Shown here: one piece after another, positions 2,515 through 12,817 of the stretch
Layout of the letters: each line of letters starts with the position of its first letter
Numbering within the stretch: position 1 is the stretch's first letter
Source: Methanobacterium sp.
GTDB taxonomy: Archaea; Methanobacteriota; Methanobacteria; Methanobacteriales; Methanobacteriaceae
Assembly: GCA_003166335.1 (NCBI GenBank)
Contig: PMWA01000066.1
Location: 2,553-16,671 of the forward strand
Reading direction: 5' to 3'
Length of the DNA stretch: 14,119 bases
The notes under the pieces: model-generated
What the model was told of the DNA's origin: nothing
The model's database searches: none
What the model saw: only the letters and a program-made list of their open reading frames with translations
Made by a program: the position numbers and the translations under genes

Positions 2515-3603
2515 TCAAAATAAATCAAGTAGTTCCGGGTGTATTTTATCCTTGATTTTTAGTTCAGCTATAACGATACCATATGATTCCTTTATAATTT
2601 TAAATTCAGGTCGCACCATGCCACGAAATGCAGAATAACCCATAACTTTTCCATAGTTTTCAGTGATGATTGCTATAATTTTAGTGAAGTTATCTATGAA
2701 GCTGGTTTCTCTTTCAGATAAAGGTATTTTCTCAGCGTTTTCTCTTATTTTATCGAAATCTATTGTAGAATTGTTTTTAACATCAACCCCGTATAAGAGC
2801 TTTTTACATTCCTTTGTAGGTAGAAATTTACGGGTTAGTCCTCGAGCTGGTGCTACACCCATTATTTTACTAGCTCCAATGGACATTGCTTTCAAAATGG
2901 ATTCATAAATTGTTAAGATAAGTTCAGACCGTTCAAACTCATTTTCAGGTACTTTGCTTACTTTTTCCAGTTTGGGAAAGGCTATAGGTGGCTTTATAAT
3001 AGGTATACTAGTTTTTACTGCAACTATTGATGCATCTAATATTTCTGTCACTTGATTTTCAATTTCTGATTGGTTTTTTGATTTTTTTGGTGAGATTTCC
3101 GTCGTCTGCACATATTCTGCAGTGTAAGTTTCAGACGTCTTTTCAGATACTTGCCCTAATAATGATGTTTCCCCTATTTTTTCTCCAGTTGATATTTCTA
3201 ATTTTTGTTCCTCCAGCTGTATCGGAGTTAGATTTTGAGTGAGTTCTATGATATTCTCAGCGGCGTTTTTAGAGGAGATCATCACCATTCCCACATTTGC
3301 CTTCGTGTTCATGAGCACTATGAAATTAACATTTACCAGATGTAAGAAAAGCGCCTTACCCCATCTAGATTCAATTAATACTCTTTCTAATTCTCCCTGA
3401 TTTGTAAAATTAATTAATCTCTTAGATGAACTAGTGATTACATGTGCCATTGGACCGAATAGATCTGTATCTACATCATGGATTAAGTTGTGGGATAATA
3501 TTTCACCATTCCCATCCACAATTAGACTTCCATCCACACCGCCTATTTTGGCCAGATTGTTAATAATATTATCCAGCTGCACCTTTAATTCTGATTCATT
3601 CAT
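2515..3603 (-). CDS. Roadblock/LC7 (MglB-like) domain protein with a low-complexity linker and an uncharacterised C-terminal helical domain
   Basis: The first ~120 aa match the Roadblock pattern (LAKIGGVDGSLIVDGNGEIL...GELERVLIESRWGKALF...ANVGMV). An E/T/S/K-rich linker and a ~140 aa C-terminal domain follow. GTGAT RBS-like sequence upstream. Confidence 0.8.
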   Translation of the reverse strand: MNESELKVQLDNIINNLAKIGGVDGSLIVDGNGEILSHNLIHDVDTDLFGPMAHVITSSSKRLINFTNQGELERVLIESRWGKALFLHLVNVNFIVLMNTKANVGMVMISSKNAAENIIELTQNLTPIQLEEQKLEISTGEKIGETSLLGQVSEKTSETYTAEYVQTTEISPKKSKNQSEIENQVTEILDASIVAVKTSIPIIKPPIAFPKLEKVSKVPENEFERSELILTIYESILKAMSIGASKIMGVAPARGLTRKFLPTKECKKLLYGVDVKNNSTIDFDKIRENAEKIPLSERETSFIDNFTKIIAIITENYGKVMGYSAFRGMVRPEFKIIKESYGIVIAELKIKDKIHPELLDLF

Positions 3604-3658
3604 TTAATCACATTAAATATGGCTGAGTATTATTTTTTCTGCAATCTTTTCTCTTATC

Positions 3659-3703
3659 ATCTATTTTACTTAAATTGATCTATTTATATAATTACATCTA
3701 TTT
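3659..3703. repeat. Three direct copies of ATCTATTT around a TATA-like box upstream of the Roadblock gene
   Basis: ATCTATTT at 3659-3666, 3678-3685 and 3696-3703. The minus strand reads TTATATAAA over about 3683-3691. Confidence 0.45.
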
Positions 3704-3775
3704 TTTTGAATTAAAGTATAATTTTATTTTATTTAAAATAAGCTAACAATGTTTGTTTAAAAAATATCATTTCTC

Positions 3776-3832
3776 AAAAAAAAGAGAATTTATGAATAAA
3801 GGAAATTTAAAAATATCCTCTAAAAATATCCT
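3776..3832 (-). terminator. Putative oligo-T terminator region of the hydrogenase cluster
   Basis: On the minus strand, AGGATATTTTTA occurs twice (3808-3819, 3821-3832) right at the stop codon, followed by a T8 run (3776-3783). Archaeal terminators are typically oligo-U tracts. Confidence 0.4.
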
Positions 3833-5280
3833 TATAATATGTGTCTCTTGATAAACACACCGTCACTATCATGGATATCTACGGTTAAAGGTGATTCTCC
3901 ATTTATCATATGAGTAGCACAGGAAAGACAAGGATCATAAGCCCTAATAATCATCTCTAACTGATTTTTAAGTCCTTCTGAAACTTCTTCGCCGTGAATC
4001 ATTGCTTTAGCTGTTTCCCTTACACCAATATCCATGGAAAGATTATTCTGGCCCGTAGAAACTATGAGATTAGCCCGAGTTATAATTCCAGCACCGTCTG
4101 TTTCATAATCATGAATCAGAATTCCACGGGGTGCTTCAATCATTCCCACACCTCGCTTAGTTTCATTGGATTCATTTGCCTCCTCTTTACTCATTAGAGG
4201 TTCAGTAAGACCCTGCCTAATATCAGATCCAGTTATAGAATCATCTTCTAAGAGTTGTACTGCTCTTTCAGCAGCGTACATCAATTCAATTAAACGTGCA
4301 TAGTGATATAATAAAGTGTTCTGCGCTACTCCATAATTATCTCGATATTCACCAAATAATTGCTCCGCTTTTTCGGTTGATAGATTGTTTGCGATGTTCA
4401 TACGGGCTAGTGGTCCAACCCGATAGTTTCCTTCAGGAAATCCTATCTGTTTAAGATAGGGGAATTTCAGATAGGACCAGGGCTGTACCTTTTCTTCAAT
4501 GTAATCTAAATAATCAGTTGCAGGGAATTCATGAATTAATTTACCGTCTTTATCTACGATTTTCGCTGGGCCATCATATAATTCCACATTCCCAGAGTTA
4601 GATAGGGCGCCGAAATAGGTTTCAACTGGCCCCAGTGTTTCGATTGCTTCACTGTATTGGGCAAAAAATGGTTTGGCTACATTCACTCCTTTATCTATGA
4701 GCTCAACTGCAACTTTAGCTTCATTTAAAAGTCTATTTTGTTCATCTACTGTTATACCTTTGGATTGGCCACCCGGTATGGCTGTAACTGGACTTATAGG
4801 TTTACCTCCAACTACACCCGTTATTTTCTGACCAATTTTCCTAGTTTTTATAGCCATTTTCACTAGTTCAGGATCTTTTTTAAGGATTCCCAGCACATTT
4901 CTGAGAGCAGGATCGGATTCAGGACCCATTACTAAGTCTGGTGCACCTAAAAAATAGAAATGCAGGGAATGTGAATGTATGTATTGGCCAATAAGCATTA
5001 ATTCCCTTAATTTCTGGGCTGTTTCTGGTGTTTGTAATCCAAATACCTGATCAGTGGCTTTAGCTGCGGTTAAATGGTGTGCGGTTTGACATATACCACA
5101 TATCCTAGGGGTGATGCGTGGAGCTTCCTCAACAGCAGCTCCCTCCAAAAATTTTTCAAACCCTCTTATCTCCATTACGTGAAGATGAGCATCGTAAACA
5201 TTTCCAGAATCATCTAATTGAACAGTGATCTTGGCATGTCCTTCAATTCGAGTTACAGGGCTTATTTCGATATTTTTCAT
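3832..5280 (-). CDS. mvhA: [NiFe]-hydrogenase large subunit, group 3c-like (MvhA/VhcA type, F420-non-reducing); probably a paralog of the main MvhA
   Basis: 482 aa with PVTRIEGH, L1 motif [41 protein letters not shown] and L2 motif [12 protein letters not shown], followed by a 25-aa C-terminal extension. AGGTGAT RBS. Confidence 0.92.
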
Positions 5281-5296
5281 ATTTTATCACCTATTG

Positions 5297-6208
5297 TTAT
5301 TTCTTGACCAACTGTTGGATCAATGAAACCTGCTTTTCCTCCATTATAGTGCTTCCAATAACAAATCCGTATATCACATGCCCAATATCGTAGAGTTGTT
5401 TTTCAACATCCTTCTCTGGCATCTTGGAAATGTGAGCAATCCTTTTTATCACTCCATTATAAATATCATGACTGGGTTCCCGTATTACATCAAGAGATGG
5501 ACCTCCACAACCATGACATTCTACACCAGCTGCTGTACATAATGCACCACACCTTCCCAGTGTAACGGATCCTAAACATACATATCCCTGACTGAGGAAA
5601 CATTTTTCAGGATCAGGATCTCCTTCAAGCCGTCTGTGTATCTTATCAAATTCTACATGTTCCATATGACGCTGGCAATCAGCGCAAACACTTTTTTTAG
5701 GAACTTCTGGTGCTCTGTCATTAACTAAAGGAATTAAAATATCCCCCACAAGTCTTTCTTTAGGTGGACATCCTGGTATGTAACCATCTACATCGGTAAT
5801 ATCACTTGCGGGATGAACTATTGGTAATAATTTGGGAACAACTTCTGATGGAAGTTCAGCAGATACTGTGCTGGGGTTGTCAGTGTAGGTTCGGGAAGTT
5901 ACTTCTTCAGGAGTGTAAAGGTCTGCCATCCCCGTTATACCACCGTAACAAGCACAGGTTCCGTACGCAATTAGTATCTTTGATTTTTCTCTTAATTCTT
6001 CAAGTTTTTCCTTATTTTCAATATTCCGCACAGATCCAGATACAATGGCAATATCTATATTATCAGGGAGTTCCTTTGAATCCATTAAAACAGGAGCATA
6101 AACTATTTCAGCTTTATCCAATAATTGTAATATTTCTTCATGTAAATCAAGAATAGATATCTCACAACCAGAACAACTAGCCAATGTTTCTAAAGCAAGA
6201 GTAACCAT
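5297..6208 (-). CDS. mvhG: [NiFe]-hydrogenase small Fe-S subunit (MvhG/VhcG type), cytoplasmic
   Basis: 303 aa with proximal-cluster motifs [12 protein letters not shown] and PGCPP, and C-terminal Cys motifs [21 protein letters not shown] and CHGCGGP. No twin-arginine signal peptide. Confidence 0.9.
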
Positions 6209-6762
6209 TATTTACCACCCCAGTTAATGGTTAGTGTTTTAAGACAGGCGTTAGGTCCTACATGATCAATGTCCAGTTTTCCTTTGATGTCCATCACTTC
6301 TTCCACTGCACCCACCATGTAACCATAGAGGAGGTAACATAAAGGCCCTTTTTGAGGTAATCCTGTTCTCCTCAGAGTTTGTCTTACCACACAATCCCGG
6401 AATAATAGTTTCACTTCAGTTTCACCACTTCTTTCAATAGTGAAACTTTCTTGACTTGATGGTTTCCACATTTCAAAGAAGAATTCTTTACCCAAGATCT
6501 GGCTAAGTTCCTGCATTGCGTTTTCTAAGTTATCGGTTTTTTCCATAAGTTTACCTGCATCATGCCCCATTCTTTTCCCTGCTTGGTATACTATGGCGTT
6601 AGCACCTCTGCCAGAAACTTGTTCAAGTGCACTAGCCATGGATCCGACAAATTTCATCAGGACATGTAAAGCTTCTTCGTAGTCATCTATCTCCCCCCCA
6701 CATTCAGGAGGAATTAATTCTGGCTTAAATGTGCCCCTTATTTCTTCTAACTCCATTTCCAT
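6208..6762 (-). CDS. V4R (4-vinyl reductase)-like small-ligand-binding domain protein
   Basis: 184 aa showing the V4R-type pattern [22 protein letters not shown]...FRDCVVR...[15 protein letters not shown]...AC. Its TAA overlaps the ATG of the small subunit (TAATG, 6210-6206). AGGGGG RBS. Confidence 0.72.
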
Positions 6763-6775
6763 CTGATTACCCCCT

Positions 6776-7027
6776 TTATATTATTTTATTTATGGCATTA
6801 CTCACTTTACGGTCTATGTAAAGTCTTTTAGCTACGTGTATATCCTGATGTTCCATGGCTTGTGCAGGGCAGATTTCATGGCATGAAAGACATGCCATAC
6901 AATCTTCTTCCTTTACTACTCTAGTTTTATTTTTGGCTTCATCCATTTCATAGACGTCGTTTGGACAGTCTTCCACACAAGATCCACATCCAACACACGC
7001 GTCTTCGTCTATTTCTATTTTCACCAT
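6776..7027 (-). CDS. 2[4Fe-4S] dicluster ferredoxin
   Basis: 83 aa with two CxxCxxCxxxCP motifs ([24 protein letters not shown]). AGAGGGG RBS at 7034-7040. Confidence 0.93.
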
Positions 7028-7052
7028 TTAATACCCCTCTATTTTTTTTTTA

Positions 7053-7108
7053 AATCATAAAAAAAATTCAGTTTTAACCTCATTATCTGAATTAAAATTT
7101 TTATGATT
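7053..7108. promoter_or_regulatory. Extended imperfect inverted repeat in the presumed leader of the hydrogenase cluster
   Basis: Outer arms AATCATAAAAA (7053-7063) and TTTTTATGATT (7098-7108); inner arms AATTCAG (7065-7071) and CTGAATT (7087-7093). Confidence 0.5.
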
Positions 7109-7172
7109 ATATTATTTTTTTGTAAAAAATATTTAAAATATTCAATTTGGATATATTTATGAATTATTTCTC

Positions 7173-7190
7173 TTATATAATATTTAACTT
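7173..7190 (-). promoter_or_regulatory. Candidate archaeal TATA box for the ferredoxin-V4R-hydrogenase cluster
   Basis: Minus strand reads AAGTTAAATA-TTATATAA, about 145 nt upstream of the ferredoxin start. The region is very AT-rich, so specificity is low. Confidence 0.3.
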
Positions 7191-7273
7191 ATTTTTACAA
7201 GTTCCTGTTAAGTTCAGAAACAAAAATTATATATTTTCAATAAATATCATTCAAAAATTAGTTTTATATTACC

Positions 7274-7294
7274 ATCTGCTGTATCAAAGCAGAT
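7274..7294. promoter_or_regulatory. Perfect 7-bp inverted repeat, ATCTGCT-N7-AGCAGAT
   Basis: Directly visible; comparatively GC-rich within an AT-rich spacer between mscS and the ferredoxin gene. Confidence 0.4.
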
Positions 7295-7420
7295 ATTCAC
7301 TTAAAAGAAATTTATAATTGGTTTTACGGCTAAACTTCAATTTTTCATAGTTTTTATCTTTATGAAGAATATATAAAAAATTTAAAGATTTCATTTAACC
7401 TGTTGAAAATAAATTATTTT

Positions 7421-7429
7421 AAAAAAAAA
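7421..7429 (-). terminator. Putative oligo-T terminator of rnz-mscS
   Basis: T9 run on the minus strand, 8 nt after the mscS stop codon. Confidence 0.45.
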
Positions 7430-7437
7430 TTGATGAA

Positions 7438-8178
7438 TTAATCGTTTTTATTCACTAGAAGTCTCTTTATTTCTCTAGCAAGTTCAGATCGGTATGTTTC
7501 CACATTCCATGGATTATTAGTCCACACATTCAATGTAACCTTTACACCTAAATCTGATAATTCTTTTACAATAACTTTAGGTTCAGTTTCACTTGAAACC
7601 CAGTTTAACGTTGATGCTCTTTCTTCCAAAGATTTTATTATATCTTCCAAGTTTAATTCATATGGAATATTAATTTCCAGTTCTACTATACGCTTATCCA
7701 AAGCTGTATAGTTTATGAAAGGATCTGTTGAAAAAATAGAATTAGGAATTGTAATAGCCTTATTATCGATAGTTACCATGTTAGTAATTCTGAAACCCAT
7801 TTTAGTAACAGTACCCATCTGCCCAGATACCTCGATAAAATCTCCCACTTTAAAACTTTTAGTACCTAAAACAAATAATCCAGATATAAAATTGGATAAA
7901 GTATCCCTTGCTGCAAAACCTACAGCAATACCTAGAATACCTAAACTTAAAACCAAACCAGTTATATTAATTCCGAGAAAATTAAGAATTATTATCACAG
8001 CAATTGTAATTATAGAGTATTGCACTATCTCTTGAAGTACCTGAGTCACAGTAATTTCTAAATCAAACTTTTCACTAGTTTTTTTGATTAAATAATTTAT
8101 AACATTTATGACAACATAAGCAGCAATTAAAATAACCCCGACGTTTACAATATCAAGTATAATGGGATCAATTACCAA
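7438..8178 (-). CDS. mscS: Small-conductance mechanosensitive channel family protein
   Basis: 246 aa with three N-terminal hydrophobic helices, [38 protein letters not shown] and IPNS. TTG start with AGGTGA RBS; overlaps the end of rnz by 11 nt. Confidence 0.93.
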
Positions 8179-9371: not shown

Positions 9372-11024
9372 TTATTCTGTGTAAAGACCGTTTTGTTTAA
9401 TATCCTTTGGTAATTGGGGTGAGAATGATTTTAAATTTTCAATTAATTCAGTTTCGTACTGTGGGGAAGTTGCATAAAATGATACCGTATCATTTCCAAG
9501 GATCACATCATGCGGAGTTGTCCATTCTCCAACTTTAATCCAATTTGAAGGTATATCTCCGACCCACCATTCTTCATAGATTATAGCTATTTGAACGTGG
9601 TGTTGGTTAGCTAAATTATTCAGTTCCTGTGCGTTAAAAGTATTGTTTTCATGGGCTTGTGCCACATCATTACTACTTAAACCCACTAAATCTAAACATT
9701 CGATATTTGTGAAATAATTAATAGCTCCAATATCATTAGCTGCAATCGAACCATTTGGATAATATTCACTTAAAAATGAAGCCATCTGATATTGTTGCTC
9801 ATAAATGTTATTAGTGGATTGGGGTATTATTGTTAAATAATACGTTTTAAATGCAAATGGAGATAATAAAAGGATTACTATTAAAGAAATTCCTAAGTAT
9901 TTCGGAATTGATTTCTTATTAAATTTAAAAGAAAATTTCTTTGGTAAGTAATCATACACTCCTAAAATTAACGCTATCAATCCCATAACAATCAAGTAAG
10001 ATGTGTATCTTAAAATCCAATCATTATTAATAAAAATAAGCTGTATGATGATCAGTAATCCACTGAGGATTAGCCAGATGGTAGGAACTTCCCATATTGT
10101 TTTACTCTTCTTAAAACGAAATGTAGCGATTGATAATAATATAAGAGCAAAAATCATTGCTAATAAATAAGTTATAATGGTGGAGATTGTATCAGGTAAA
10201 ATAGAGTAAAAGTAGGATAAGTAATTTATAGAAGTAGTAGTTATGGTGTTCGTAAAATAGGATTTAAGTATTACGGAGTTGGGGAGAAAAGACCATCCAT
10301 TTAGAACTGAAATTACCCCGTATACTGCTAAAGGAATAATTGCCAATGCTATAATCGGAAAAGAATACGTAAACTTTTTCTTTAAAATAAATAAAAATGC
10401 TATAAAAAAAATTAAAATTAAACTTTCATAACGAACCATTGCCAAAGGAACAGTTAAAATTAATAACAAATAATAATTCAGCGGTCTAATGCTTGAACTC
10501 GTTAAAATTTGAACTGAAAGAAAAACAAACGAAATAACAAGAATTATCTGCAAAATATGCTCCATTCCAATAAAAATAAGATAAGGAATCGGAGCAAAAA
10601 ATATAACGCCAAATAACACCATTAAATTATAAATAGGAATAATTCTATAAAATCTAAGAATATAATAAACCAAAAAAATAGTGATAGTACCCAAAATAAT
10701 ATTCAATATAAACGGAACAAACACATTCACCCCAATAATATAATAAATAAACGATAATAAGAGAGTCCACAGAAGAGATGATGAGGAAGAACTGAATCCA
10801 TATGGCGTCACACCCCATACACCATGCAATGCGAAATTTTTCGCAATCGACATATGAATATACGCATCATCAAGACCATAAACAAAATGACCCTGATTCA
10901 ACTTAAGCGAAACAACCAGAAATAATAAAGTAATTACCCAAAGTATAGACAAAGCTGTAACTAAAGGCCAATGCCGATGAAACATAGTATTCAGTTTACT
11001 CATTGTTTCTGTATAAATGTTCAT
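9372..11024 (-). CDS. Polytopic membrane protein, putative GT-C-fold glycosyltransferase (DDAYI type)
   Basis: 550 aa with about 11-12 hydrophobic segments. DDAYI follows TM1; also SSSSLLW, GME, RYE, LPNS..K and a C-terminal soluble domain with DIGAINYF...LDLVGL. This layout resembles lipid-linked-donor glycosyltransferases. The start could be the second Met (MSKL). Confidence 0.65.
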   Translation of the reverse strand: MNIYTETMSKLNTMFHRHWPLVTALSILWVITLLFLVVSLKLNQGHFVYGLDDAYIHMSIAKNFALHGVWGVTPYGFSSSSSSLLWTLLLSFIYYIIGVNVFVPFILNIILGTITIFLVYYILRFYRIIPIYNLMVLFGVIFFAPIPYLIFIGMEHILQIILVISFVFLSVQILTSSSIRPLNYYLLLILTVPLAMVRYESLILIFFIAFLFILKKKFTYSFPIIALAIIPLAVYGVISVLNGWSFLPNSVILKSYFTNTITTTSINYLSYFYSILPDTISTIITYLLAMIFALILLSIATFRFKKSKTIWEVPTIWLILSGLLIIIQLIFINNDWILRYTSYLIVMGLIALILGVYDYLPKKFSFKFNKKSIPKYLGISLIVILLLSPFAFKTYYLTIIPQSTNNIYEQQYQMASFLSEYYPNGSIAANDIGAINYFTNIECLDLVGLSSNDVAQAHENNTFNAQELNNLANQHHVQIAIIYEEWWVGDIPSNWIKVGEWTTPHDVILGNDTVSFYATSPQYETELIENLKSFSPQLPKDIKQNGLYTE

Positions 11025-11230: not shown

Positions 11231-12817
11231 ATGAAAATTAATAAAAATCAATTGAAAAGTCTAATTTGGGTTATACCGGCTATAATAGCCTTTTTTTTAA
11301 TCTTAATTCCAACTCTAAAATATCAGTGGCCATTAAGCTGGGATGCAATTTATCAAGTACAATATTCCCAGGTTTATGCGAAATATGGATTTGTATTAAT
11401 AAATCCACTTTTGAATGCACCATTTGGTCAAAGTATTAGTTATCCCCCACTTTTCGACTTTTTAATAGCTTTTTTAGGTATCGTAAGCAAAGTTAATTTA
11501 TTCCAAATTGCTCGGTTTCTTCAGCCTTTCTTAGGCATGTTCCTGATACTATCTGTTTCTTATGTAAGCCGCAAGTTTTATGGAACCATTGCAGGAGTAG
11601 CTACGGGTTTTTTAATCTTATCCAGTTTGTTGTTAGGTAATCGTATAATTTTTCCATTGCCCGAAAATCTGGCTTTAATATTTTTTCCTTTATCAGTTTA
11701 TTTCTATTATTATTCTCTAAAAGAAAAATCACTCAAATACGCCATTATAGCCGGATCTTTACTTATACTTATCCTTTTAATCCATCAAACTGCTCCTTTA
11801 ATCTTATTTTTAGTAATATCCATATTTACATTAATCGAATTGATTGTTTACAGGAATATTCGTGTTTTTAAAAATTACGGTGCGTTCCTTCTCTTACCCA
11901 TAGCATTACTTATATTAATAATAGGGTTATTAACGGGGTTGCCAAATATTTTTTCCAACGTTATACACCACGCAATTCAAGAAGCATTTGCCACTACTTC
12001 GATTATATCTAAGCCTTTAGATATATTGAGTTATGGAAATCTTGGTGTTTTAACTTTGATATTTGGCTTAATTGGGGTTATTACTGCAGTTAAAAGAAGG
12101 CAAAAAGAAGATATATTTATACTCAGTTGGATTATCGTGATTATTTTATTGATCAATGCCTACTTGTTTGGTTTAAACGGTATAAACAGTATATCTTATC
12201 GTTTGCTGGTTTATCTTTTAATACCCGTCTCCATTTTAGGAGGGTTTGGTGTTGCCACAGCCTACCATGAACTCAAGGATTATAAAAATTTCTCTTCAAA
12301 AAAATTCAGAAATGCATTTTTAATATCACTATTTGCATTAGCTACATTTTTCGGATTTTTAACGGTAGAAAATCCGTTAATAGCTTCTTTTGAAGTTACT
12401 AATCAATATGGAGCATTTCAAATCGCACCACCATCTCCTTCAGAGATGGATCTGGCGATCTGGTTCAATGAAAATGGCAATAAAAGTAAATCTATACTCT
12501 CCAATGATCTTTTTCCACTCACTTTTGTGACTACACAGACAGGAATGCCTCTTGCTAGTGATTCAGATTTCGAACATTTCAATAAAAACGTTTCTAAATC
12601 ATTCTTTGAAAAAAATAATATTGGTTACGTTGTATTAGATAAAAGATTATCATTCAATTCAAATAATGAAACGCTCTATAAAGTGGAATATGAAGGAGAA
12701 TTTTATAACCTATTTTATTACAGTGAAGACATTCCATCTAATCTTAATATAATACTCCCAAGCTACATGAAAGTTGTATATGAAAATAATGATTTTATAG
12801 TTTGCGAAGTCCAATAA
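11231..12817 (+). CDS. Polytopic membrane protein, putative GT-C-fold (STT3/PMT-like) glycosyltransferase
   Basis: 528 aa with about 12-13 TM-like segments. PLSWDAIYQ follows TM1; also YPPLF, LPENLAL, SYRLL and a C-terminal extracellular domain (ILSND...NIGYVV...[14 protein letters not shown]). Confidence 0.6.

Follow-up and report, generated by a model that had tools for sequence, protein, structure and literature searches.

An Mvh-like [NiFe]-hydrogenase encoded with a ferredoxin and a V4R-fold protein in many methanogens: a candidate H2 or redox signaling system

The closest described systems to the locus analyzed here are the group 3c hydrogenases MvhAGD(B)/VhuAGD, the H2 donors of HdrABC. 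Group 2b sensors have a large subunit without the C-terminal extension and differ from catalytic-type subunits with all clusters. HydDB lists group 2b as histidine-kinase-linked H2 sensors (PMC5037454), and the model Methanothermobacter genomes yielded no sensory hydrogenase (PMC3087415). Methanocella "Mvh1" and Methanoculleus marisnigri "Mvh" have been treated in print as ordinary Hdr-linked Mvh, with the V4R gene entered as hypothetical, and we found nothing in those publications that sets them apart by role, clade or partners. A search of full-text, mostly open-access literature returned no description of a hydrogenase with V4R, ferredoxin and Roadblock partners.

Gene layout and conservation of the cassette

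The window, by which we mean the whole 14,119-nucleotide stretch of Methanobacterium sp. DNA analyzed here, contains the following genes:

6776-7027, minus strand: ferredoxin, 83 aa (ORF; Pfam Fer4)
6208-6762, minus strand: V4R-fold protein, 184 aa (ORF; predicted structure)
5297-6208, minus strand: MvhG-like small subunit, 303 aa (ORF; Pfam Oxidored_q6)
3832-5280, minus strand: MvhA-like [NiFe] large subunit, 482 aa (ORF; Pfam NiFeSe_Hases)
2515-3603, minus strand: Roadblock fusion, 362 aa (ORF; Pfam Robl_LC7)

A sequence-only reading of the window had described four linked genes with a co-directional Roadblock gene 228 nt downstream, and this spacing was confirmed: from ferredoxin to Roadblock fusion the gaps are 13, -1 (TAATG), 16 and 228 nt. 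Its claim that each of the four linked genes has a ribosome-binding site holds, their starts being preceded by Shine-Dalgarno-like purine-rich stretches (GAGGGG, AGGGGGT, GGGGTGGT and AGGTGAT), while the stretch before the Roadblock fusion start is weak. The absence of mvhD, mvhB and hdr from the window, also claimed there, was borne out by sequence and Pfam scan. Among the 11 window proteins scanned, the Fer4, Oxidored_q6, NiFeSe_Hases and Robl_LC7 matches were all above cut-off, and neither a histidine kinase nor an MglA-like small GTPase was found; a MinD-type ATPase recurs in related loci. Compared with MvhAGD(B)/VhuAGD, the G-then-A order is the same, but ferredoxin and V4R genes replace mvhD and there is no mvhB. 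A sigma-70 promoter/terminator scan of the window gave 22 predictions against 23.3 expected, a chance-level result from a model that is wrong for archaea. Part of the stretch is contained in 20 peat metatranscriptomes, and in the 4 of these that were examined, contigs span all five genes; these contigs span the flanks too, carry no strand or level, have no silent control and are not counted as evidence of transcription or co-transcription.

The four-gene cassette was detected in 106 of 301 Methanobacteria genomes. Its presence is almost universal among Methanobacterium-like genera, and it also occurs in Methanocella, Methanoculleus, Methanofollis and Methanogenium. The V4R gene and the window-type large subunit are present together in 106 of 107 genomes, counted after removal of one weak V4R match (G189, E 3.6e-4). 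Gene order ferredoxin-V4R-G-A held in 79/79, 76/77 and 74/74 Methanobacteriaceae loci and, between different flanks, in 65/66, 68/69 and 55/55 Methanocella/Methanomicrobiales-type loci, with the ferredoxin gene immediately 5' of the V4R gene in 79/79 and 65/66, respectively. Conservation of this order across two archaeal phyla exceeds chance (74/74 plus 55/55 informative loci), and the linkage of ferredoxin and V4R genes on which the sequence-only reading had remarked is kept in both. No cassette was found in 15 genomes of three other families searched, which could explain its having been missed.

Cassette proteins and their relatives

Both hydrogenase subunits have their best solved relatives in Mvh (large subunit, MvhA 5ODC_F, E 2.8e-139; small subunit, MvhG 5ODC_E, E 3.4e-90), and the closest solved chains of the large subunit belong to group 3. 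The large-subunit motifs RICGIC (C61, C64) and DPCLSCATH (C451, C454, H457) are intact and are kept in the full-length homologs among those listed, and a 25-residue C-terminal extension follows H457. The small subunit has 13 invariant cysteines, retains all Fe-S cysteines and aligns over 249-288 profile positions with MvhG, compared to about 170 with HoxY-type subunits. The NiFe and Fe-S ligands are the same as in MvhAGD(B)/VhuAGD, but the C-terminal region of the small subunit carries its own conserved, clade-specific motif, unlike that of canonical MvhG. Retention of the C-terminal extension and of all clusters is as in catalytic enzymes and counts against a sensor.

The suggestion that this is a second Mvh-like enzyme was upheld by a separate canonical mvhDGAB in the same genome (contig C56), to whose MvhA and MvhG the window subunits are 47% and 38% identical. 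Against NCBIfam VhuA the large subunit scored 463 bits with a cut-off of 800, a comparison in which no canonical MvhA was scored as control. Window-type large subunits formed a separate clade in three trees (support 98/91, 97 and 89 [mixture model]), which contain no named rows for methanococcal VhcA/VhuA or Methanocella MvhA-2. The expectation of a distinct lineage thus stood insofar as the large subunit has its own clade in these trees and is not nested in Methanobacteria MvhA, but AU tests leave an alternative, rejecting neither a grouping of the Methanobacteriales paralog with canonical MvhA (p 0.087) nor one of the whole window-type group with MvhA (p 0.26). A single intact MvhD is encoded in the genome; the sole further MvhD-like domain, part of a fusion with HdrA, lacks the cysteines. 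This fusion (C107) was considered as a dedicated partner and rejected on that ground and on its distribution, which differs from that of the cassette (232/301 genomes, including 84/92 in a genus with 0/92 cassettes).

The ferredoxin is of the 2[4Fe-4S] type, with two CxxCxxCxxxCP motifs (C11/14/17/21 and C43/46/49/53) and a conserved C-terminal tail of ~25 residues. Both motifs, together with H60, R68, Y70 and V75 of the tail, are invariant among 31 sequences from both phyla.

Assignment of the 184-aa protein to V4R was supported by fold and not by profile. It did not match Pfam V4R (PF02830) at E 0.01; its sole Pfam match was ATC_hydrolase (E 7e-5, under cut-off), and PF02830 matched 8 of 17 family members weakly, with a best E of 0.056. 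A search of the V4R alignment against solved-structure sequences gave three chance-level matches only. The AlphaFold2 model (pLDDT 74) has a V4R/Bet3/H-NOX fold, for which the top Foldseek matches were the PoxR/MopR sensory domains and Bet3 (E about 4e-5 [3.9e-5]; TM about 0.57 to PoxR), and VIA gave Z scores of 13.1 for Bet3, 12.9 for PoxR (rmsd 3.8 across 149 residues) and 11.0 for MJ1460. The gene is present in one copy in the genome, and bacteria also carry V4R-fold homologs. C124, C142 and C173 are invariant and H167 is near-invariant, bacterial homologs included; this Cys3-His set is predicted to be a metal or thiol redox site, and the protein resembles a cysteine/metal redox module more closely than a demonstrated small-ligand sensor. 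With the PoxR/MopR/DmpR sensory domains, MJ1460 and MetOD1 it has in common the fold and three conserved cysteines; it differs from V4R-fold sensors in standing alone, without a DNA-binding or ATPase domain, in falling under Pfam cut-offs and in being bound to a hydrogenase operon. MsvR and CorQ are further members of this set of V4R-fold sensors and methanogen domains with cysteines. The fold held in common with known sensory domains speaks for signaling, and the inclusion of enzymes and scaffolds (ATC hydrolase, Bet3, BcsD) in the same fold speaks against it. MetOD1, a similar methanogen domain with three cysteines, has been proposed to be possibly enzymatic (PMC5847659).

Roadblock and MinD genes and expression in Methanocella

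The Roadblock gene, which the sequence-only reading had counted as part of the system, is a loosely associated and non-obligatory part: the window-type fusion follows the cassette in 62/67 loci, but it lies 228 nt off in the window, is missing beside the cassette in 5/67 loci, is present in 22 genomes without a cassette and is ~300 kb away in one complete genome. In Methanobacteriaceae this neighbor is conserved no better than an unrelated flank (62/67 versus 68/69 for MscS). PF03259 (Robl_LC7) matches the fusion at residues 12-83 with 37.2 bits against a cut-off of 23 (26-54 bits for Roadblocks of homologous loci), and a profile of 59 sequences divides it into Roadblock/LC7 (~1-122), a variable linker and a conserved C-domain (198-362). 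The C-domain model is all-helical (pLDDT 93), with no Pfam family, atlas matches under 0.9, no Foldseek match at E 0.001 and a best VIA Z of 5.6; its HMM had no match in Methanocella/Methanomicrobiales loci.

In loci of the Methanocella/Methanomicrobiales type, two Roadblock-domain genes come right after the cassette (45/45 informative loci, gap -23 to 50 nt), and minD lies within the locus in 17/24; in the window's genome the Roadblock/MinD module is about 14 kb from the cassette. Orthology of the window fusion with the Methanocella Roadblock fusion was rejected (19% identity over the Roadblock domain, different domain order), and the window fusion is likewise not an ortholog of the short Roadblock 3' of the large subunit in these loci. 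Roadblock and MinD genes are frequent in pilus loci according to passages of PMC4858521 that mention neither hydrogenase nor V4R.

Methanocella conradii Mtc_0112 is a member of the window V4R family. Mtc_0109/0111 stand beside it, with two Roadblock genes and minD-1; therefore, Methanocella "Mvh1" (Mtc_0109/0111) is the window system, and M. marisnigri "Mvh" (Memar_1007-1008) likely is as well. In published M. conradii RNA data, Mtc_0112, mvhG-1, mvhA-1, both Roadblocks and minD-1 share a single expression level of log2 FPKM 8.9-9.4, with Hdr-linked mvhG-2/mvhA-2 at 12.6-12.8 and hdr-1 at 3-4 (PMC6046458). The cassette, at about 9 still well expressed, is 8- to 14-fold lower than Mvh2; it is also lower than Hdr2 but much higher than Hdr1. 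In syntrophic coculture its log2 change was 0.29-0.78, compared to 0.41-0.56 for canonical mvh (PMC6046458), a small change like that of the canonical genes, which counts against signaling.

Proposed role and alternative explanations

We propose, with about even confidence, that the cassette encodes a second Mvh-like hydrogenase that is Hdr-independent and low-flux and likely serves H2/redox signaling. More tentatively, it could be a putative H2 sensor of free-living hydrogenotrophic methanogens and an unrecognized group 3 subgroup, in which the ferredoxin and a Cys3-His V4R redox switch would translate H2 pressure into control of Roadblock-MinD; "Mvh1" and the Methanomicrobiales "Mvh" may then have been misfiled and would not be Hdr donors. 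We speculate that the NiFe site would oxidize H2 and that the small subunit would relay the electrons, via its three clusters, to the dedicated 2[4Fe-4S] ferredoxin, which would set the redox state at the Cys3-His site. Roadblock proteins could read this state and act on a MinD-type ATPase, with cell division, shape or surface structures as candidate final outputs. The likeness to group 2b (HoxBC of Cupriavidus/Ralstonia, HupUV) is no more than a working analogy, in that electrons from a hydrogenase present at low level would determine how a signaling partner is set; the window system differs in its group 3 lineage, its C-terminal extension and its ferredoxin, V4R and Roadblock partners. Methanogens adjust to H2 supply, and if the sensor proposal is true, the cassette would supply an archaeal hydrogen sensor of the kind long sought. 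The genera that carry it are major methanogens in peat, paddies and digesters. Some carriers are in culture (M. conradii, Methanobacterium oryzae and M. ferruginis), which makes the idea directly testable. Whatever its role, metabolic models and metagenome surveys would miscount Hdr donors if each mvhA is scored as one, which affects the question of the HdrABC electron donor in Methanomicrobiales.

A somewhat unlikely alternative is that the cassette is an Hdr-independent metabolic enzyme serving a reaction of biosynthesis or repair at low flux. The V4R protein would then be a catalytic or electron-accepting subunit (a reductase of thiols or small molecules, or a connector carrying a cluster), the hydrogenase would reduce its own ferredoxin, and the Roadblock/MinD genes would be neighbors or regulators and not the output. 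Ferredoxin-V4R-G-A is a tight, invariant unit that some genomes keep separate from the Roadblock fusion, and its catalytic anatomy is complete; in Pfam the V4R protein comes closest to an enzyme family, MetOD1 may be enzymatic, and a divergent V4R-G-A version (L193) exists alongside the bacterial V4R homologs. However, no metabolic enzyme gene recurs beside the cassette across lineages, the Roadblocks are at operon distance in every informative Methanocella/Methanomicrobiales-type locus, and those of M. conradii are transcribed at cassette level.

That the enzyme is an Mvh isoenzyme docking on MvhD-HdrABC in some conditions (e.g., low H2), with ferredoxin and V4R protein serving only regulation or assembly, we regard as unlikely. 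Among solved structures its subunits come nearest to MvhA and MvhG, sisterhood with MvhA is not rejected by the AU tests, both Methanocella Mvh sets were taken as Hdr partners by Sakai et al. 2011, and MvhD-type connectors take different donor modules (PMC12350162). M. marisnigri, reported to have one Mvh pair with mvhD beside hdr (PMC2686161), fits an Hdr donor and goes against a sensor. Yet mvhD was found in 0/160 cassette loci (0/80 plus 0/80, some of them short contigs), 93 of 106 genomes with a window-type large subunit show a second match at canonical level, M. conradii expression follows neither Mvh2 nor either Hdr, the small-subunit C-terminal motif is not that of MvhG, and Hdr works without MvhAG in other Methanomicrobiales. 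It is very improbable that the arrangement is a gene-order relic in which hydrogenase, ferredoxin and V4R protein are functionally unlinked. Methanobacteriaceae flanks are indeed broadly conserved, unrelated genes included (MscS 68/69, RNase Z 68/69, RFC small subunit 54/63), but in the second phylum, between different flanks, the four genes keep their order and their overlapping or near-abutting codons; they relocate as a unit in some genomes and are present or absent together.

The cassette and its large-subunit clade

Re-examination of the sequence agreed with the sequence-only reading on the five open reading frames and their shared strand, as well as on the intervening gaps of 13, -1, 16, and 228 nt. 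The ribosome-binding sites assigned to the four linked genes also stood, as Shine-Dalgarno-like stretches ahead of the first four starts; the Roadblock start has a weak one. Pfam confirmed the ferredoxin, the hydrogenase small and large subunits, and the N-terminal Roadblock domain.

6776-7027, minus strand, ferredoxin
6208-6762, minus strand, V4R protein (184 aa)
5297-6208, minus strand, MvhG-like small subunit, G (303 aa)
3832-5280, minus strand, MvhA-like large subunit, A (482 aa)
2515-3603, minus strand, Roadblock fusion (362 aa)
2515-3012, minus strand, C-terminal domain of the Roadblock fusion, 165 residues, all-helical (model pLDDT 93)

Past the large-subunit stop, the coding strand of region 3604-3831 holds a T8 run (3776-3783) and a TATA-like TTATATAA (3684-3691), the latter ~80 nt ahead of the Roadblock start. 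Together they suggest a separate promoter for the fusion, in DNA so AT-rich that chance may account for both.

All four NiFe cysteines are present in the large subunit, which extends 25 residues beyond H457, and the host genome (Methanobacteriaceae, 99.4% complete) encodes two HycI-family proteases. Thirteen cysteines are invariant in the small subunit. Both clusters of the ferredoxin are complete, and its tail is conserved; the gene is tandemly duplicated in Methanobacterium loci L051, L055, L056, L061, L064, L091, L112, and L113 (~6900-8000 in most). The 184-aa protein was not matched by Pfam V4R, but its earlier assignment as V4R held at the level of predicted structure: an AlphaFold2 model (pLDDT 74, from 27 sequences) gave Foldseek matches to PoxR/MopR sensory domains and Bet3, with VIA-align Z scores of 13.1 for Bet3, 12.9 for PoxR, and 11.0 for MJ1460. 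Residues C124, C142, and C173 are invariant and H167 near-invariant, bacterial homologues included.

A distinct large-subunit clade, which the sequence-only reading had named as a result that would favour it, was recovered in three trees, spanning three orders and standing apart from Methanobacteria MvhA. Support was 97 in FastTree (86 rows, 45 of them unnamed representatives selected on length and motifs among the 71 best of 150), 98/91 in IQ-TREE under LG+G4 (37 rows), and an unstarred SH-aLRT of 89 under a mixture model (24 rows). The named rows exclude VhcA, VhuA, and Methanocella MvhA-2, and AU tests did not reject placing with MvhA either the Methanobacteriales paralogue (p = 0.087) or the whole group (p = 0.26).

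Distribution and gene order

V4R-protein matches occur in 108 of 301 Methanobacteria genomes (107 without one match at E 3.6e-4), and the 106 genomes with the window-type large subunit all fall inside those 107; 93 of the 106 have a second, canonical-level large-subunit match (E 1e-90). The cassette is near-universal in some Methanobacteria genera (26/26, 28/29, 20/21) and was not found in three other families (0/15) or in other genera (0/92, 0/23, 0/20), which are probably Methanobrevibacter-, Methanosphaera-, and Methanothermobacter-type groups. Among the best 80 of 177 GTDB loci from Methanobacteria, the V4R gene is accompanied by ferredoxin (79/79), G (76/77), and A (74/74), mvhD or mvhB was found in none (0/80), and the Roadblock fusion is present in 62 of 67 loci. 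Because unrelated flanks are about equally kept in these loci (MscS 68/69, RNase Z 68/69, RFC 54/63), Methanobacteria synteny by itself is not very informative on the Roadblock gene. Between RNase Z and nadC, the window has a pair of divergent multi-pass membrane proteins with no Pfam match (9372-11024 and 11231-12817), an insertion confined to close relatives.

Methanocella, Methanoculleus, and Methanogenium are named sources of V4R homologues with 45 to 57% identity, and Methanofollis of a large subunit belonging to the clade. In this second phylum, counted over the 80 best of 82 metagenome loci, whose unlabelled contigs were placed here for their similarity to these named proteins, the cassette again comprises ferredoxin (65/66), G (68/69), and A (55/55), with mvhD in 0/80 and a HycI-family protease nearby in 17 of the 80. 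A Roadblock gene directly follows A in 52/52 loci; A is followed by two Roadblock-domain genes in 45/45, the first at -23 to 50 nt. Of the 24 long loci, 17 also contain minD. Since the flanks differ from those of Methanobacteriaceae, this order is not background synteny, and the proposed ferredoxin-V4R-G-A order is conserved in both groups. In one divergent locus, L193 (36%), the order is V4R-G-A, and named relatives of its V4R protein come from Fermentibacteria and Desulforegula. Upstream of ferredoxin on the opposite strand, many Methanomicrobiales-type loci (L119, L137, L175, L181, and others) carry a membrane protein (cluster c13), which we take to resemble archaeal prepilin/preflagellin peptidase. 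One Methanocella-type contig (L118:885-4299) has a divergent group 4-like hydrogenase large subunit and ferredoxin-like gene just upstream of the cassette.

The Roadblock-MinD neighbourhood

In the Roadblock fusion, a variable linker joins the Roadblock domain to a well-conserved helical domain (2515-3012), for which searches returned no family or fold match and in which what looks like an internal two-fold repeat can be seen by eye. This helical domain occurs in 127 of 301 Methanobacteria genomes, including 22 that lack the cassette. Of the five genes grouped by the sequence-only reading, the four-gene cassette is kept, and the fusion is less tightly tied to it. Seven stretches gave the context of the fusion, six of them informative (four from genomes lacking the cassette, two from genomes that carry it elsewhere; the seventh contig stops at the gene). 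In all six, the fusion directly follows MscS and a 200-aa protein. It lies there within an old locus, to which a short Roadblock and DUF1611 also belong; DUF2226-like and minD genes could be seen in two of the six. On the window's own contig, ~14 kb from the hydrogenase, a conserved Methanobacteria locus (L002:6442-11308, G000:C102) holds the same short Roadblock and DUF1611 genes together with SepF-like, DUF2226, and two minD-like genes, and is possibly the output module. The Methanobacteria cassette therefore sits in a Roadblock-DUF2226-MinD neighbourhood that is independent of it. In Methanocella/Methanomicrobiales, a similar module lies within the cassette operon; between the two phyla, short Roadblocks share 29 to 36% identity. 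In one Methanomicrobiales subgroup (L135:3909-5798 and similar), the second Roadblock fusion has a ~400-residue low-complexity linker, reminiscent of the variable linker in the fusion of the window.

Expression, mechanism, and alternatives

In the PMC6046458 supplement, which lists M. conradii Mvh1 and Mvh2, monoculture log2 FPKM was 9.37 for Mtc_0112 (same V4R family), 9.39 for mvhG-1 (Mtc_0111), 9.07 for mvhA-1 (Mtc_0109), 9.00 and 9.09 for two Roadblock ("bithoraxoid") genes, 8.93 for minD-1, and 8.67 for Mtc_0113, presumably the ferredoxin by gene order. The second pair, mvhG-2/mvhA-2, next to an fwd-hdr-mvhD cluster, reached 12.62 and 12.84, 8- to 14-fold above the cassette in both conditions; hdr-2 stood at 10.9 to 11.2 and hdr-1 at 3.0 to 4.2. 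Log2 changes in syntrophic coculture were 0.29 to 0.78 for the cassette, 0.41 to 0.56 for canonical mvh, and 1.2 to 1.4 for the Roadblocks. These values fit a single transcription level for the cassette and Roadblock-MinD genes and a minor-flux enzyme, and are no demonstration of sensing.

PMC6019823 describes M. conradii MvhGA as remote from the hdr unit, with the H2 donor unknown; the PMC6046458 supplement has a second Mvh pair beside that unit. Two Mvh sets in M. paludicola were taken as Hdr isozymes (PMC3146512), Mvh was reported in M. marisnigri only of three Methanomicrobiales (PMC2686161), and no H2 sensor was found in Methanothermobacter (PMC3087415). Related literature covers MetOD1 (PMC5847659) and includes PMC5563889, PMC12350162, PMC13580544, PMC9012536, PMC5037454, and PMC4858521. 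No description of a hydrogenase with a ferredoxin-V4R-Roadblock partner set was found in the openly accessible literature searched.

The system is thus a real and conserved one that is distinct in phylogeny and has yet to be characterised: a group 3 Mvh-like hydrogenase with a new partner set, and plausibly a sensory one. The genes with their motifs and order, the clade, and the level of expression are established; for the mechanism, we infer as the likeliest reading, at about even odds, a chain of electron-transfer and binding steps. H2 would be oxidized at the NiFe site of the large subunit, and electrons would pass through the small-subunit clusters to the dedicated ferredoxin, then to the Cys3-His site of the V4R protein, which would signal to the Roadblock/MinD module. 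The narrower claim of a dedicated module that does not use MvhD is probable.

An alternative hypothesis is that the cassette encodes an Hdr-independent metabolic reductase. We consider this rather unlikely. That the genes have no functional link is highly improbable given the order conserved between differing flanks. An Mvh isoenzyme that borrows MvhD is also doubtful. The host genome has one intact MvhD, and tblastn located the separate canonical operon that the sequence-only reading had said to check for, mvhD-G-A-B on contig C56, with A 47% and G 38% identical to the window proteins. The small-subunit C-terminal region, a putative MvhD-docking face, carries a motif of its own type, with many fixed positions unlike canonical MvhG; L193 shares it, scoring 85 to 116 against the new type versus 37 to 51 against the canonical.

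The host also has an hdrC-hdrB-hdrA cluster (L234, G000:C107:37171-39558) in which an MvhD-like domain lacking the [2Fe-2S] cysteines forms the end of HdrA. This fusion is present in 232 of 301 Methanobacteria genomes, irrespective of the cassette, and was not found in 15 genomes of three other families (E 1e-35). Elsewhere in the host genome, an FrhA-like large-subunit gene (L003, G000:C90:19732-20839) appears in the assembly as two open frames of 152 and 235 aa.
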